Shown here: positions 9,352-59,158 of the stretch, piece by piece | How positions within the stretch are numbered: position 1 is the stretch's first letter | Layout: each line of letters starts with the position of its first letter | DNA from: Dictyostelium discoideum | Lineage: Eukaryota | Assembly: GCA_000004695.1 (NCBI GenBank) | Contig: CM000151.3 | Coordinates: 4,512,001 to 4,576,000, forward strand | Direction of reading: 5' to 3' | DNA length: 64,000 nt | Position numbers and translations under genes: made by a program | Notes under the pieces: model-generated | What the model saw: the letters and a program-made list of their open reading frames with translations, nothing else | Database searches by the model: none | What the model was told of the DNA's origin: nothing

Positions 9352-9959
9352 ATTTATTTTTTAAAAAATAATATTAATTGTAAAATAAAGTTTAAAAAAT
9401 AGTTTTTATTAAATAGTTAAAGATTAATGTTTTTTTTTATACCTTTATTTTAATTTTTATTTATTATTTTTATTATAATAATCAGTAAATTTTTGAAAAC
9501 TATTGAATTTTTGGAATATAAATCCACCATTTAATTAATTACTACCAAGTGGTTAAACTTGGATGAAAATCCATTAGTAATTTTATTAATTAAATAATCT
9601 TTCAAAACTGGTAATTTTGAAATAGATAATTTTTTCCCAATCGTATTCGTTGTATGGGCTATCTGTTGATAATAACCAATGAAAAAGATGAAAGCAATCT
9701 TCTTTGATAGCACACGCTAATAATTCTTGTAATAATGTTTTTAAAAAACTCTTTACCCAATTCCTTAATGATTCTATGTGAAAGAAGATATTTAAAAGTT
9801 ATTAAATCAACACCATCATCATTATTAATAATTCTTTTTAAAAAAACTGAATAAATTAAATTTGCATGATTATCTGTAAACTTTTCACAGGTTATTATTT
9901 TTTCAAGCATATCAATTCTTCTATTCTTAATTGAATGATATATTAAACTTTCAAAAAAA

Positions 9960-10176
9960 TTGTTGAAGGGAATTTTTTTTGAAATTTCGCTTTTTAAACG
10001 GCAGTGAATTTTTACACTAAAATACACTGTTTATGCATGGTGTAAAAATTCACTAAATTTTTTTTTTTTTATAATTAAATTAAAAAACAATTTATTTAAT
10101 CAGAAAAATAAAAAACCAATTTTATTCAGTTATTTGCTTGTTATTTATTTTTTTATAACAAAAAAATTTAGTTTGC

Positions 10177-10603: not shown

Positions 10604-11622
10604 AAAAAAAAAATAAAAAAAAAAAGAAAAATAAAAAAAAAAAGAAAAATAAAAAATAAAAAAAAAAATAAAAAAAATAAAAAAAAAATAAAAAAAAAAG
10701 AGGGGTACCCCCTAAAAAAAAAGAGGGTACCCCCCTAAAAAAAATAATAATTTTAATAATAATAATAATAATAATAATAAAAATGAAAATTAATATTTAA
10801 ATAAAAAAAAGAGGGTACCCCCCTAAAAAATGTTGGAATTTAATTAAATTTATTTTTTATTTTTTTTATTTTTTAATTTTATTTTTTTTATTTTTTAATT
10901 TAAAAAATGTTGATATAAAACAAAAAAATTTTTTCAAAAAAAACATTTCAAATTATTAACAAATTATATTATTATACTTTAATGTATGTGTACAATTTTA
11001 AAAATTTAAAATTTGTTCTATTTTTATCAATCATATCATGTATATTTATTAATTAAATCTCATATATTCTTATTCCCAGCAAATGACATCAGGTGGAATC
11101 GTACAACCAGGCCAAAATCTCTCACAACGTCCAATAAACGGCCAATATGGCTGGGGACCAGCAGCAGGAAGTGCCGCAAATCCACGTGGCGATCTCCGTG
11201 GTTACACTTACAATATTAGATAGTTTCGCTGTCTATTTCTGAATATTCAGAAATCTTTGTTTAATGCCAAAAATAGTAGATATCTATTATATTTTCTCAT
11301 TTTATAAATCTGATAAGATCTGTCTTAAATAAAAAAAATCAAATTTTTTTATAAATTAAAAAAAATCATTTCCGCAAATCCGCAAAAAATAGCGGGAATT
11401 AAATTATTTATTGTTTTTTAAATTGTTTTTTTTGCGTGATATGAAATGAACAGCAAATGAACAACGTGTGAGTTGTATTAGCTGATGGTAAATTGTTGTT
11501 AATTTATAAAAAAAAAAAAAAAATTTTAGTGAATTTTTACACTACGCATAAACAGTGTATTTTAGTGTAAAAATTCACTGCCGTTTAGAAAGCGAAATTT
11601 CAAAAAAAATTCCCTACAACAA
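9960..11622. mobile_element. Non-autonomous TIR element of about 1.66 kb from the same family as the integrase-bearing element (identical 16-nt terminus, different subterminal hairpin repeats)
   Basis: 9960-10050 (ttgttgaagggaattttttttgaaatttcgctttttaaacggcagtgaatttttacactaaaatacactgtttatgcatggtgtaaaaattcacta) is the reverse complement of 11527-11622 (...aaaaaaaattccctacaacaa). Each TIR contains an internal hairpin (agtgaatttttacac...gtgtaaaaattcact). The interior is homopolymer and low-complexity DNA with no credible ORF. Confidence 0.75.
10685..10835. repeat. Three dispersed copies of an aaaaagagggtacccccctaaaaaa motif, with a palindromic GGGTACCC core, inside the non-autonomous element
   Basis: Copies lie at about 10689-10706, 10717-10737 and 10808-10826. 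They are the only G/C-rich islands in an otherwise A/T homopolymer interior. Confidence 0.6.
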
Positions 11623-18330: not shown

Positions 18331-19330
18331 TCATCAATTAGTAGTAGTGTTTTAAACTCTGTAACTAGATTATATATTACAAGTGCTTCAGCTGATCATC
18401 TAGATCCCAAATCATTTACTTCTAAAGATATATTATACCATTGATCTAAATTTGAATCAGTTATATTCTCAATTGGTGCACACCAATTGATTTCATCATG
18501 ATAATCATAATCTGCTTGTTTTCTTTTATTTGATAAATCTATATTTTGTTTAAATAACCATGGTACCCAATTATGATTTGGAAATAGTGAATAACATATT
18601 TTAATAACTGATCTACCTTAATAATTAACTAAACTTGTACCTTCAGCTATATTATTAAAATCACTTAAACCAAGTTTATAACATCATCAATTTTAGATTG
18701 ATCACATGAATTTAAAACTATATTAAATTGGTTTATGTTTTTCAATTAATTCAAAAGTACTGTACCATGTGGTGTACCATATGGTGCACCGTGAACATTA
18801 TATCCCAAACACTGGACCCCTAATGCTATATAAAATATAGATGATTCATTATAATTAATTGGTCTATCTATAATTGTTTTATTAGTTAATATTTTAGTGC
18901 TATTGCTTTTATTGAATCTTTTTAAATGTCAAGAGAAATTTAAATATTTTTTATAAAATTTATTTTGAATTAAAAAAAAAAAAAAATAAAAAAAAAATAA
19001 AAAATGGAAATAAAAAAAAAAAAAAAATTAAACAGAACAAAAGTTAAATTAAAAAAAGAAAATTATGTTTTTTTTTTTTTTTTGGTCAAGATTTTTCCCA
19101 ATAAGTGGATTCTTAATTTCATAAAAAAAAAATAAAAAAATAAAAAATAATAATTATAATAATAATACTATTTCAACATGTAATTTGAAAAAGTTTTGAT
19201 AGATTCAACAATTCAAATAAAAAGACAATACAACATAATAATGGATAAAGATGAAACAAAATAAAATTAAAAATAGATTTAATATTATTTTTTTTTTTTA
19301 TTTAAATTTTTTTTATTCCAAAAAAGGAAT

Positions 19331-19582: not shown

Positions 19583-20438
19583 ATGAGTGCACCAAACAAT
19601 AATAATAATAATAATAATACATCACCAAGACAAACAACAACATCACCAACAACAACAGCAGCAGTAACAACAAAAGCTCCTGGACCATTTCATTCACATT
19701 CCACACCTCAATATTTAAATTGTGCACCAAATTGTAATACATGTACATCACCAAATGTAAATTCAATAGAGATAGATCAATTGATAGCTAATAATCATGC
19801 CTGGTCAACTAGAATCAAACAAGAGGATCCAGGATTTTTCACACATTTAGCAGAGGCACAAAAACCACGTTTCCTTTGGATCGGTTGTTCCGATAGTCGT
19901 GTTCCAGCTGAGCGTTTAACTGGTCTTGAAAGTGGTCAACTATTTGTTCACCGTAATGTAGCCAATTTGGTAATTCACACCGATTTAAATTGTTTATCGG
20001 TTGTCCAATACGCTGTGGAAGTATTACAAGTTGAACATATCATCATTTGTGGTCATTATGGTTGTGGTGGGTGTTGCAGCCGCTTACGATAATCCAGAGT
20101 TGGGTTTAATCAATAATTGGTTACTTCACATTAGAGATCTCACCTTCAAACACGCCACTATGATCTCAATGTTGGAGGGCAATAGAAAACGTCTCTTGGA
20201 TACCTTGTGTGAATTAAATGTAGTAGAACAATGTTTCAATTTAGGTAATTCAACAGTTATGCAATCCGCCTGGAAAAGAGGTCAAGATGTTAAAATTCAT
20301 GGTTGGATTTACGGTATTCAAGATGGTTATCTTCGTGATTTAGGTATCACTGCTTCATCTCGTGATACTTTAGAATCAAATTATAAAAATTCAATTCAAA
20401 AATTAAAAGAAAATATTTCATTAAGTACAAGTAACTAA
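19583..20438 (+). CDS. Beta-class carbonic anhydrase; the reading frame is broken by a single-nucleotide (+1) shift inside the conserved CGHYGCGG motif
   Basis: ORF 19583..20092 gives ...[59 protein letters not shown]...[14 protein letters not shown]. Beta-CA homology then continues in the +1 frame (ORF 20001..20438: [22 protein letters not shown]...[16 protein letters not shown]). The junction is at ggtggg|tgttgcagcc around 20066-20075. Confidence 0.65.
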
Positions 20439-40268: not shown

Positions 40269-41278
40269 CACAAGTGATTATTTTTTTTTGTTGCATATGA
40301 AAAAAAAAAGAAAATTAAAAAAAAAAAAAAGAAAAAATTAAAAATTAAAAATAAAATTTTTTTTTTTTTTTTAAAATAATAAGAAAAAAAAAATAATTAA
40401 AAATAGTAATCAATTATATAATTTGTGTAGGTGTTTTTTTCTTTTTTTTTTTTTTTATTTTCTAATTCCTTTTTATTGTTAATTTTATTGTTTTACTTGC
40501 TTTTTTTTTTTTTTTTATTTTTATTTTTTTTTTTTTTTTTTTTTCTGTACAAAATTTATTATACACCCACCCACACACATACACCCATTAAGTGATTGGA
40601 AATATCAAAATTTTGGTGGTAAAAATGATATCATATTCTCAATTTTAAAGTCATTAATTTATTAATAAATATATTACTCATATGATTTTATCTCAAAAAA
40701 GGAAATAAACTAAAACATATATTAATAATTTACAAAAATTACCATAATAACCATATCCACTTTATTCCCCAAAACACTACATTAAAATATTCATTATTCT
40801 TCTATTTATAATAAAATATCATCAAAAAACCACACACACATATATTCACCCAAAAAACAATATTAAAAAAAAAAAATATTCACCCCACAGAATTTAATTT
40901 TTTCACACACTTACATACTACTACCCAAACTCAACAGATAAAAATTAATTTTACACACAAACAAACACACAGACACACACAGACACACAATGTGAAATAT
41001 AACATCACAAATATACAATCTATTATCAACTATTTTTTTGGTTTTTTTCTTTAAATAAATAAATAAAAAAAAAAAAATAAAAAAAAAAAAATAAAAAATA
41101 AAAAAATAAAAATCTAATATCGCCTCACCTACAACCAACCCCCCAACACAACACCAATTCGCGTTGATATTATTATTATTATTATTTTAATTGTTTTGTT
41201 TTTCTTATTTATAAAAGAAAAATAATAATAAAAATAATAATAAATAAAAAAAATAAATAAATAAATTAAATAGCTTTG

Positions 41279-41309
<31 letters not shown>

Positions 41310-41620
41310 GAAATGAACAATTTTTTAGTTTTAAAACAATTCCATTTATTTATTTATTTATATTTATTTATTTATTTATTTATTTATTTTGGCCGAAACA
41401 CCAAAAAAAAAAAAGTACAGATGCCTTGTTTTATTTGCAGTTTTTTTTTCTATTTTTTTTTTTTTTTTTTTTATTAATTTTACATTTTTTTTTTTTTTCA
41501 CCTTTTTTCCTTAAATCCTAAAACTCATAAGTTTTAATCATTTACATAAAAAAAAAAAAAAAAAACATTCCAATTTGCAATGACCCCAGTAATTAAAATT
41601 TTCTTAAAAAAAAAAAAAAG

Positions 41621-42199: not shown

Positions 42200-43033
42200 T
42201 TTAATAACCATATTTATACTGTTGTTGTTGTTGTTATCTTATTGTTTTTTTTAATATTTTTTTTTTTTTTTCCAATTGCACCATCTCTCACCTATTTTCT
42301 TTTTGTTAATTCAATTTTTGCATATTTTATGAAATTTCAAAAAAAAAAATAAAAAAAAAAAAAAACCACACCAAAAAAAAAAAAAAAAAAAAAAAACAGA
42401 TTTTATAATTTTAAATCACGCACATATTTAAAAGATTAATTAATTAAATCTCAATTCCTATATTTATATATATATTATTACAAAAAATCAAATAACCACA
42501 TATTATATACATATTAATATATACATAAAAACATATTTAACATATTCAAAAAAGAATAGTCGACATATAGATTCAAAAGTCCTTTCCCACTTTAACCAAT
42601 ACAAATTTCAAAAATATTCAAATTTAATTTCTTTGTTTTAGATTTCTGAAAACATATTTATTTATTCCATCAAAAAAAAAAAAAAAAAAAAATCAAAAAA
42701 AAAAAAAAAAAAAAATTATCTGTTTTGGAAAACCACAAAAATAATTTTTTCACCCCCACACATTCACAATTTTAATTTATAAATTAATCAACCAACACTT
42801 TTTTTATTATTATTATTATTATTTTTTATTCACACACTTACTTTTATATAAAATTACTTTTGTATATATACCCTTATATAATATATTTCCCACCCCATCA
42901 TAATTAATTATCTCACTTTTTTTTTTTTTAAAAAATTCTCACAAAATTTATAAATCAATACAAATATTTTATTCAAATTAAAAAATAATAAAAAATTACC
43001 ACAAAAAATCAACAATATAAGTTCAACAATAAG

Positions 43034-43070
<37 letters not shown>

Positions 43071-43670
43071 AATAATAAGAAACAATTCAATCTTTATCTT
43101 TTATCAAATACATTGATTTTTAACAACACACTCACACACGCACTCACTCACAAAAAACATAAACATAAACATAAGCATAAACATAAACACACACACACAC
43201 ACCGAATTATTTAATTTAATATTCCTTTGGCCAAAAAATCCACCTTTTAAATAATAATAATATGAAAATTAATTTTAAATTTTTTTATATTTTTTTTTAT
43301 TTTTTTTTTTTACCTATTTAAATAAATTATCAATTCCAAAATATATTTTTTTTTTTTTGTTTTTTGTACATAAAACTAAAATAAAATTAATTTTATAAAA
43401 ATAAATATTTTATAAATTAATCCAAAAACACACACACATATATAAAATATAATTAATAAAATCAACCACACATACACAATAAGATCTTTTTTTTTTTTGT
43501 TTTATTTTTTATTTTTATATTTCATTCAACAATAATAATAATAAACTTTTTTTTTTCCATAAAATCATAACAACATATATAATAATAATAAAAAAAAATT
43601 AAAATTAGTTTTGTAAATAATAATCTACTCCAAAAAATATATATATATATTTAATATAAAATCTTTTAAA

Positions 43671-48218: not shown

Positions 48219-49298
48219 TTAAATAAAAAAAAATAAAAAAATGATAAAATAAAAAATAATAAAATTAATAATAGTAATAATTTGGTTTTATTTTTATTTC
48301 TTTTCTTTTTAATTTCTCTTTTTAGTGTCATGCTTAATTAAATAATTTTTAAATAATATTTAATTTTGTTTTTTTTTTATTTTACTATTTTTTTAGAAAA
48401 TTAACCACTGATATTTTTTCCTAAAAATAAATATCTATGATATAAAAAATTATTTTGATCAAATTAGAAAAAAAAAAATAAATAAATACAATAAAAAATA
48501 AAAATAAAAAAAAAAAAAATTAATAAAAAAAAAAATAATAAATAATAAATAAAAAAAAAAAATGGAAAAAAAAAACAATAATAATGAATTTTAAATTTAG
48601 AATTTATTTTTTTAAAAAAAAAAAAAAAAAAAGTTAAAAATATTTTAAATTAGAAAGGGGAATTTTAAAATATTAATTTTAATATTTTTTTAAAAATTAA
48701 AAAAAAAAAAAAAAAAAATTTCTAATTTTAATTTCCATTTTTAGACAACTTTTTTTTTAAAAATAAATTCTAATAGGGTCTTGTCTTTTATTTTAAGAAC
48801 TTAAACAAACAAAGCTATTAAATCAAAAAGAATAATTAAAAAAAAAAAAAAAAACTTCAAAACAAAAGGTTTGTTTATTTTTTTCATTTACAAAAAAATA
48901 ACTTATCAATTTTATTTATTTAATTCTTTTTTTTATTTTTTTTATTTTTTATAAAAAAAAAAAAAAAAAAAAAAATCACAAACAAAATTAAAAAACTACA
49001 ACAAAAAAAAAAAATAATAATTTTAAAACACTTTATTAAAATTATTTTGTTTTTGTTTTATTTATTTAAAAAAAAAAAAAAAATAGAAAAATAAATATGT
49101 AAAATAAAAAAAGAAAAAAAAAAAATACCATATAAAATAAAAAAAAAATATTTTTAAAAGAAAAAGAAAAAAAAAAGTTCATCCCTTTATTCTGTAAATA
49201 TATTCAATTCATTTAAATCATTTTATTTTTTTGTTTTTTTTATTTCCAAATATTTTCAATTATTATTATTTATTTTTTTATTTTTTATTTTATATATT

Positions 49299-50427: not shown

Positions 50428-50656
50428 ATTTTTATTATTTTTATTATTTTTTATTATTTTTATTATTTTGTTTTTTTTAATTTACCAATAAGGTAAATAA
50501 AATTTTATTGTATGACATGTTTCTTTTTAAAAGTTAAAAAAAAAATACCTTTTCATATGACAAGTTTATTCTTTTTTCTTTTTTTTTAAATTAGTTTAAT
50601 TATTAAAAAAATTATTTTTTTTATGATATCCAAAAATATCGACCCTATTTGCACCT

Positions 50657-50697
<41 letters not shown>

Positions 50698-56200: not shown

Positions 56201-56794
56201 AAAATAAATAAAAAAAAAAAAAGGAAACTATACTTATAAAAAATAATAATGCATTTGTAAATAAAAAAAAAAATAAAAAATAAAAATAAAAAAAACTATT
56301 TTTTTATTTGTATATATTCTTTAATAAATTGAATTAAATTTTATTTTATATTATTTACTTTATAAAAACAATAATTTCAATTAAACAAATTAATAATATC
56401 TCATGATTAATAATTAATTAAATAAAAAAAAAAAAAAATTTTTTTTAAACATCATTTAGTTTTTTAATTTTTTTTAAAAAAAAAAAAAAAAACCTAATTA
56501 TAATAATAATAAAAATAATAAAAAATATACCTATTTGAAAACAAAGTAATAATTTTAAGGGTTTTAATTTAAAAATCGATTTTTTTTTTTTTTTTATTTA
56601 TTATTTTAAATATGTTTAAAGAATTTTTAAAGATATTTTTAATATTAATTATTGTAATTTACAATTTTGAAAAAAAAAAATTAAATTCGGACTATATATG
56701 TCATAAATATATTATTTTTAGATTTTATTCTTGTTTTTGTTCTCTCCTCACATATGTACCCTCTATCAACATCTTTTTAAATCTCCCAATTATT

Positions 56795-56829
<35 letters not shown>

Positions 56830-57509
56830 TTTTTTTATTTTTTTATATCAATAAAAATTTTCAATTTGATTGTAACTATCACACATATTTTCGCACATGT
56901 TATTTATAACATTTTTACCTACCTAGTAAAACTTTATTTTTTTTTTTATTTTTTTTTATTTTTTTTTTTTATATTAATATTTTATTTAATATATATTTTT
57001 ATTTTATTTTTAACAGCACCAGTTTAAATAATCACACACACAAACACACTCACAAATTTTATTTTATTTTTATTTTTATTTTTATTTATTTTTATTTTTT
57101 TTTCTTATTTCAACACCACCCTTTTTTTTTTTTTTTTTTATTTTTTTTTTATTTTTTTTTTTTTCCTTTTGTTTTCAAAAAATTATTAATTATCTACAAA
57201 TAAAAAAAAAACTTATTTAAAAAAAAAAAAAAAAAACAACCAACAACAACTTATATTTCTATAAAGATATAATCATATAAAATTTTTTAATTTTAATTAA
57301 AAATTATAAAATAAATTAATATTTCAAATTAATTCGCCTCAATTTCAATTTCAGTTTTTTTTTTTTTAATCACTTTTTTTTAATTCTCCATTAAATTATT
57401 TATTTAATAATAAAAAAAAAAAAAAAAAAATAAAAAATAACGCACACATATTAAAAAAAAAAAAAAAAAAAGGATTAATCATCGATAAGGATTTAAAAAT
57501 TATAATAAA

Positions 57510-59032: not shown

Positions 59033-59158
59033 ACCTGTTTCCTAATCATTTTTTTTTTTAATGCGTATCCTTTTTTTAATAAATATAGGTAATTAAAAAA
59101 AATAAAAAAAAAAAAAATAAAATAAAAAAAAACAATGAAAAAAAATATCTTTCTTTTT

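Follow-up and report, generated by a model that had tools for sequence, protein, structure and literature searches.

The closest described system for the locus analysed here is the type II beta-carbonic anhydrase Can of Escherichia coli (YadF or ECCA; 1I6O, 1I6P and 2ESF). We take Cys42, Asp44, His98 and Cys101 of this enzyme to be its zinc ligands, and Trp39, Arg64 and Tyr181 to form its non-catalytic bicarbonate pocket. The product of the Dictyostelium discoideum gene DDB_G0274643 has the CSDSR and HYGCGG motifs in common with Can, and the pocket residues correspond to W99, R124 and Y243, which are invariant among its relatives. It differs from Can in having an additional N-terminal extension of ~60 residues, rich in N, T, S and P and containing a TSPR site, and a short phosphorylated C-terminal tail, ENISLSTSN; it is also found in mitochondrial fractions. 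A further difference is that, in the DNA described below, its open reading frame (ORF) is interrupted. D. discoideum has a paralog of the same family and architecture, Q55BU2 (Q94473; 276 aa), which is about 80–85% identical to the DDB_G0274643 product but has another N-terminal extension and a C-terminus ending in DNCSLGDSN, and whose reading frame runs unbroken in the AX4 reference. Across the D. discoideum species complex, both types of paralog have been retained.

We analysed a window of 64,000 nucleotides, the whole stretch from position 4,512,001 to 4,576,000 of the forward strand of contig CM000151.3 in the D. discoideum AX4 reference (GCA_000004695.1). In this window, the beta-carbonic-anhydrase reading frame of DDB_G0274643 is split by ggtGGGtgt at 20066–20074, where the sequence reads GGTGGGTGT (Table 1). 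The surrounding stretch, 20048–20092, reads tgt ggt cat tat ggt tgt ggt ggg tgt tgc agc cgc tta cga taa. The break lies two codons past the last zinc ligand (C161), where a surplus G causes GGT GGT GTT to be written as GGT GGG TGT T. The +1 frame is open from 20001 onwards and runs to a stop at 20436–20438, and deletion of any one base of 20068–20072 repairs the frame to 284 amino acids. A preliminary description of this DNA had reported a frameshift inside the CGHYGCGG motif that is crossed by skipping one base; direct reading of the sequence bears out its coordinates, the motif and the +1 direction.

Table 1 Features of the DDB_G0274643 locus, in coordinates of the window
Feature	Position	Strand	Remarks
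Whole gene DDB_G0274643, single-exon beta-carbonic anhydrase	19583..20438	+	284 codons plus stop with one G removed
Upstream ORF, 169 aa, with the lineage-specific N-terminal extension and the four Zn-ligand codons	19583..20092	+	
GGG run with one surplus G	20069..20071	+	GGTGGGTGT in the window; GGTGGTGT in L002 and L001
C-terminal half of the enzyme in the +1 frame, G163 V164 ... ENISLSTSN	20070..20438	+	Pro_CA 67-155
Pseudo-intron of the reference annotation, 31 nt, GT..AG, 55% GC	20067..20097	+	Removal reproduces Q555A3/XP_644170.1
Presumed Zn-ligand codons	C102 19886-19888; D104 19892-19894; H158 20054-20056; C161 20063-20065	+	Alignment to 1I6O and the ligands that we take for E. coli Can

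Profile searches placed complementary parts of one family on the two sides of the break. Pfam Pro_CA (PF00484) matched the first ORF over profile positions 2–69 with 108.5 bits, and the second, +1 ORF over positions 67–155 with 51.3 bits; thus, the two ORFs are abutting halves of one domain. The repaired protein matched positions 2–155 of the 156 with 173.1 bits (E = 6.5e-51; cutoff 25.7). The closest solved structure, that of E. coli Can (PDB 1I6O), aligned to residues 63–275 of the repaired protein with 363.8 bits (E = 4.4e-108). In this alignment, C102-S-D104-S-R106 and H158-Y-G-C161 fall on Cys42, Asp44, Arg46, His98 and Cys101 of Can, and they are invariant across relatives. The protein therefore clearly belongs to the beta-carbonic anhydrases of type II and is closest to the enterobacterial Can, with catalytic activity predicted from the sequence. 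Truncation at the break would remove the equivalent of Can residues ~104–220, including Y243, the counterpart of Tyr181 of the bicarbonate pocket, and the 169-aa product would presumably be inactive.

Across their entire catalytic domain, the dictyostelid beta-carbonic anhydrases share ~70% identity with Can of Enterobacterales, an unusually high value for proteins of a eukaryote and a bacterium. The similarity to gammaproteobacterial enzymes, together with an origin by horizontal transfer, had already been proposed from the faulty 274-aa model of this gene (PMC4793742).

We then compared the site with other D. discoideum records, this being the species that gave the best matches in a search with the repaired protein. 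The repaired 284-aa protein occurs verbatim as KAM9945295.1 (ACTFIT_003551) in the D. discoideum assembly GCA_054883475.1. The corresponding locus (L002) reads ggttgtggtggtgttgcagcc, with one G fewer, and the surplus G is the sole difference between its coding sequence and that of the window over the entire length. A second, more divergent D. discoideum strain is represented by GCA_054859355.1; its locus (L001) has 16 codons in this gene that are unlike those of the window, and it likewise reads GGTGGTGT. Both loci encode the full Pro_CA domain in a single uninterrupted frame, whereas the window does not. The preliminary description had named ggtggtgtt, one G fewer, as the form that independent reads would show if the break were not genuine, and it is this form that the two independent assemblies carry, although neither represents AX4 reads. 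We also aligned 17 dictyostelid proteins of both paralog types, covering D. discoideum, D. cf. discoideum, D. citrinum, D. dimigraforme, D. firmibasis and D. purpureum. The conserved stretch ending in [A/S]YDNPELGL was present in 16 of them, and the only gap was that of the AX4 model. Neither junction variant turned up in JGI metagenome contigs (0 matches). Protein searches with the C-terminal 134 aa and the lineage-specific N-terminal 89 aa, aimed at partial gene calls from RNA-seq contigs, returned not even the known orthologs and hence do not count as negative results.

The assembly GCA_054883475.1 proved to be very close to the window well beyond the gene. L002 aligned to window positions 9485–30473 with 99.5% identity, and a 1,671-aa ORF of the window is encoded verbatim on the same contig, where its locus (L010) is 99.3% identical to window positions 41107–64000. 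When all differences over the ~44 kb were listed, there were 64 substitutions and ~45 indels besides the surplus G. These lie in non-coding, mostly AT-rich DNA, with one uncertain case, G>C at 18637, which falls inside a 152-aa repeat-region gene model with unmapped exons. The two records agreed at every position in ~7.4 kb of myosin gene sequence and in a 5-kb ORF. Among ~27 kb of genic DNA, the surplus G (20069–20071) is therefore the only difference that we located in coding sequence with good support. GCA_054883475.1 and the window are near-isogenic, as would be expected if both belong, as we infer, to the NC4-derived laboratory lineage.

Comparison of the repaired window sequence with L001 revealed 14 synonymous and 2 non-synonymous differences, distributed 8:1 before the site and 6:1 after it. 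This 14:2 ratio, with a like bias on both sides of the site, argues that the whole ORF is under purifying selection. At the protein level, two 11-residue phosphopeptides of the extreme C-terminus were assigned to Q555A3, the database product of DDB_G0274643, in the mitochondrial phosphoproteome of Ax2 (PMC8584165). They map downstream of the frameshift and are paralog-specific, unlike the ...LKDNCSLGDSN of the paralog. DDB_G0274643 is also listed among the core chemotaxis phosphoproteins in Ax2, and its N-terminal TSPR would fit the [S/T]PR motif named in the chemotaxis study. The paralog Q55BU2 is found at full length in at least eight RNA-seq-like Logan runs (SRR268692xx and SRR285645xx; contigs L003–L009), and no full-length product of DDB_G0274643, be it intact or truncated, has been recorded for runs of this kind; lower expression of DDB_G0274643 may be the reason. 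The preliminary description had asked whether this locus still gives the organism a functional enzyme. For the species, the doubt is not supported: the gene is intact elsewhere and under purifying selection, and its C-terminus has been detected in Ax2.

An old or decaying pseudogene, for which several disabling lesions or a dN/dS near 1 would be expected, was considered and rejected, given the single lesion, the lack of any other difference from the intact allele and the synonymous bias that is kept downstream of the site. As to a protein product, the C-terminal peptides detected are those of Ax2.

The reference annotation accounts for the break by a 31-nt intron. Indeed, cutting out 20067–20097 and translating the remainder reproduces the 274-aa Q555A3/XP_644170.1 exactly, and this protein is identical to the repaired one except for ten missing residues, which are conserved in all relatives. 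If the annotation were right, the interval would be spliced out and the 274-aa protein would be the genuine product; consistent with this, it reads GTGGG...TCCAG, thus satisfying the GT..AG boundaries, and its removal restores the frame. However, it has neither the size nor the AT-richness typical of an intron (31 nt against a published D. discoideum mean of 146 nt; 55% GC in a window of 23% GC), and its removal does not leave the homologous protein intact, as it would take away the ten residues found in every relative. In the other assemblies, moreover, the corresponding stretch has 30 nt and is coding and in frame, and the other 16 dictyostelid gene models all lack a gap here. A real intron is thus scarcely credible, and the earlier statement that no intron of Dictyostelium size fits the site was right in substance, even though annotators had put one of 31 nt there. 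What the annotation resembles instead is the class of tiny spurious introns that automated eukaryotic annotation lays over single-base indels of a reference. As in those cases, a short run contains one base too many, the frame is repaired by taking out a very small GT..AG interval of coding-like composition with a length not divisible by three (here 31 nt), and conserved residues are lost; the only point on which this case might differ is whether the surplus base is in AX4 DNA or in the record alone. A programmed +1 ribosomal frameshift would, by contrast, accept the extra G as real and produce the full-length enzyme by a slip from GGG to GGU (G_GGU). The movement from GGG_U to G_GGU would allow the Gly-tRNA to re-pair at the first two codon positions and would yield exactly CGGVAAAY, and C-terminal peptides of the protein do exist. 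The site therefore offers re-pairing and, as in antizyme, bacterial prfB and yeast Ty1, ABP140 and EST3, a +1 shift is required; but, unlike those systems, it is not conserved, the shift site has neither a stop nor an evident hungry codon, and the RNA downstream shows no significant structure. Programmed frameshift sites are conserved, yet this one is absent from orthologs, paralogs and conspecific strains, with 16 of 16 dictyostelid models and the two conspecific assemblies being in frame. The A-site holds no stop, as the next 0-frame codon is UGU (GGG UGU UGC) and the 0-frame stop comes 7 codons downstream. The RNA fold of 20060–20180 is unremarkable (z = -1.19; 29 of 200 shuffles fold as well), although a stimulatory structure is optional in known +1 cases. 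As for the peptides, they are those of Ax2 and would be explained more simply by a gene that is in frame in that strain. Programmed frameshifting is thus without support and close to refuted, and the chance that a real lesion in AX4 is rescued by +1 slippage at G_GGU is negligible.

Given that a near-identical independent assembly lacks the extra G and encodes the intact enzyme, a sequencing error is the most likely explanation. We put at roughly 0.75 the probability that the surplus G is a base-calling or consensus error in the Sanger reference and not a lesion truly present in AX4 DNA, and the frameshift is very probably not a biological feature. Codon usage is in keeping with this: the 17 Gly codons of the gene outside the read-through 0-frame GGG comprise GGT (14), GGA (2) and GGC (1) with no GGG, and two large ORFs nearby use GGG for 1 of their 154 Gly codons. 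The GGG codon at the site hence looks like the result of an inserted base and not like an evolved signal. Three AX4 mutation-accumulation lines differed from the reference by 1,917 substitutions, 1,916 of which were common to the lines; the authors ascribed the shared differences to reference errors or clone differences, and they estimated the mutation rate of D. discoideum at 2.9e-11 per site per generation (PMC3466296). Discrepancies in the AX4 reference would therefore vastly outnumber true new mutations, and the low mutation rate together with the shared differences makes the prior odds favour a reference error. It is unlikely, though worth serious consideration, that the extra G is real in AX4 (or in the AX3/AX4 lineage, or in the sequenced clone), as a very recent loss-of-function insertion that truncates the protein after residue ~163. 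The base is, after all, present in the deposited sequence, and a very recent mutation would look just like this, with one lesion and no other departure from the intact allele. Such a lesion is proposed to be tolerated in AX4 because the paralog Q55BU2, so similar in sequence, intact in AX4 and fully assembled in the RNA-seq-like runs, remains. The positive evidence for an intact gene, furthermore, all comes from strains not shown to be AX4: the strain of GCA_054883475.1 could be NC4, the wild-type parent, or Ax2, and the protein evidence is from Ax2. Sanger consensus errors are also commoner in A/T tracts than at a site like this one, a short run of G in coding DNA that is comparatively rich in GC. 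Against a real mutation stand the rate cited above, set beside thousands of discrepancies between the reference and AX4 lines, and the fact that this is the only coding difference located in the genic DNA compared with the near-isogenic assembly. Exact look-up of the frameshift products (169 aa, 145 aa and a 126-aa product starting MVVVG) found none in independent assemblies or SRA-derived contigs; this carries little weight, as the SRA-derived set does not contain the intact 284-aa product either. The error could in principle lie with the other record, as every homopolymer discrepancy is longer in the window, which hints at systematic under-calling of runs in GCA_054883475.1; however, under-calling that happened to restore both the frame and perfect homology is very improbable. 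The preliminary description had offered an assembly or sequencing error, recent pseudogenisation and, as unlikely, translational frameshifting, and it is the first of these that is best supported.

A reference error would account for the locus as follows. DDB_G0274643 would be a normal single-exon gene with a Dictyostelium-specific N-terminal extension of ~60 residues. One surplus G would have entered the chromosome 2 record through the Sanger shotgun assembly of 2002–2005, and automated gene prediction would then have spanned the break by a spurious GT..AG intron of 31 nt, from which the 274-aa database protein results. The two competing GG and GGG forms of the site can be compared as CATTATGGTTGTGGTGGTGTTGCAGCC and CATTATGGTTGTGGTGGGTGTTGCAGCC; AX4 DNA would read GGTGGTGTT at the site if the reference is in error, and GGTGGGTGTT if the extra G is real.

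The main value of the analysis is a correction, namely a 284-aa gene model and a flagged position in the reference; it offers nothing new on frameshifting or carbonic anhydrases, and the biology is ordinary. The current model of DDB_G0274643 (Q555A3/XP_644170.1, 274 aa) is wrong in that it lacks ten conserved residues beside the active site and should be of 284 aa. This faulty model has been used both in phylogenetic work (PMC4793742) and for the numbering of phosphosites (PMC8584165), and the published Ser-273 and Thr-272 of Q555A3 (PMC8584165) are Ser-283 and Thr-282 on the 284-aa protein (codons within 20406–20435). Mass spectrometry against the reference proteome cannot identify peptides that span the 20066–20074 site, and the tryptic peptide across it, N125–R184, would be too long (~60 residues) to be seen. 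Should the base instead be real, AX4, the most widely used laboratory strain, and the source of the reference genome, would carry a natural null allele for one of its two beta-carbonic anhydrases. The enzyme lost would be the one found in Ax2 mitochondria, and AX4 and Ax2 would then differ in CO2/bicarbonate handling, a strain difference relevant to comparisons of AX4 and Ax2 physiology.

Several other features of the window were observed along the way. Nearly all of the ~45 indels relative to GCA_054883475.1 are changes in the length of A/T tracts, and the window is longer in every such case. The substitutions are strongly clustered, with 20 of them in 41278–41603 and others in 42581–43277, 49128–49250, 50485–50667, 56531–56563, 57472–57489 and 59088–59093. 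These clusters and tract lengths could stem from hypervariability of the AT-rich spacers or from a mistake in one of the two assemblies. A search of the whole window with ARAGORN found no tRNA genes, and no set of introns could be reconstructed for the neighbouring myosin gene on the assumption that it has two. The gene directly upstream of the carbonic anhydrase shows copy-number variation of a tandem unit: L001 carries the 480-nt unit in 2.9 copies at its positions 866–2229, compared with a single copy at 18421–18758 of the window, and the gene model at this unit is 542 aa in L001 versus 152 aa in L002. The substitution at 18637, in the region of the tandem unit, is among the few in 9485–30473 that do not adjoin an A/T tract. 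Finally, an inverted repeat of 127 nt with 92% complementarity lies at 9960–10086 and 11496–11622, its arms being separated by 1409 nt of spacer rich in A/T tracts.
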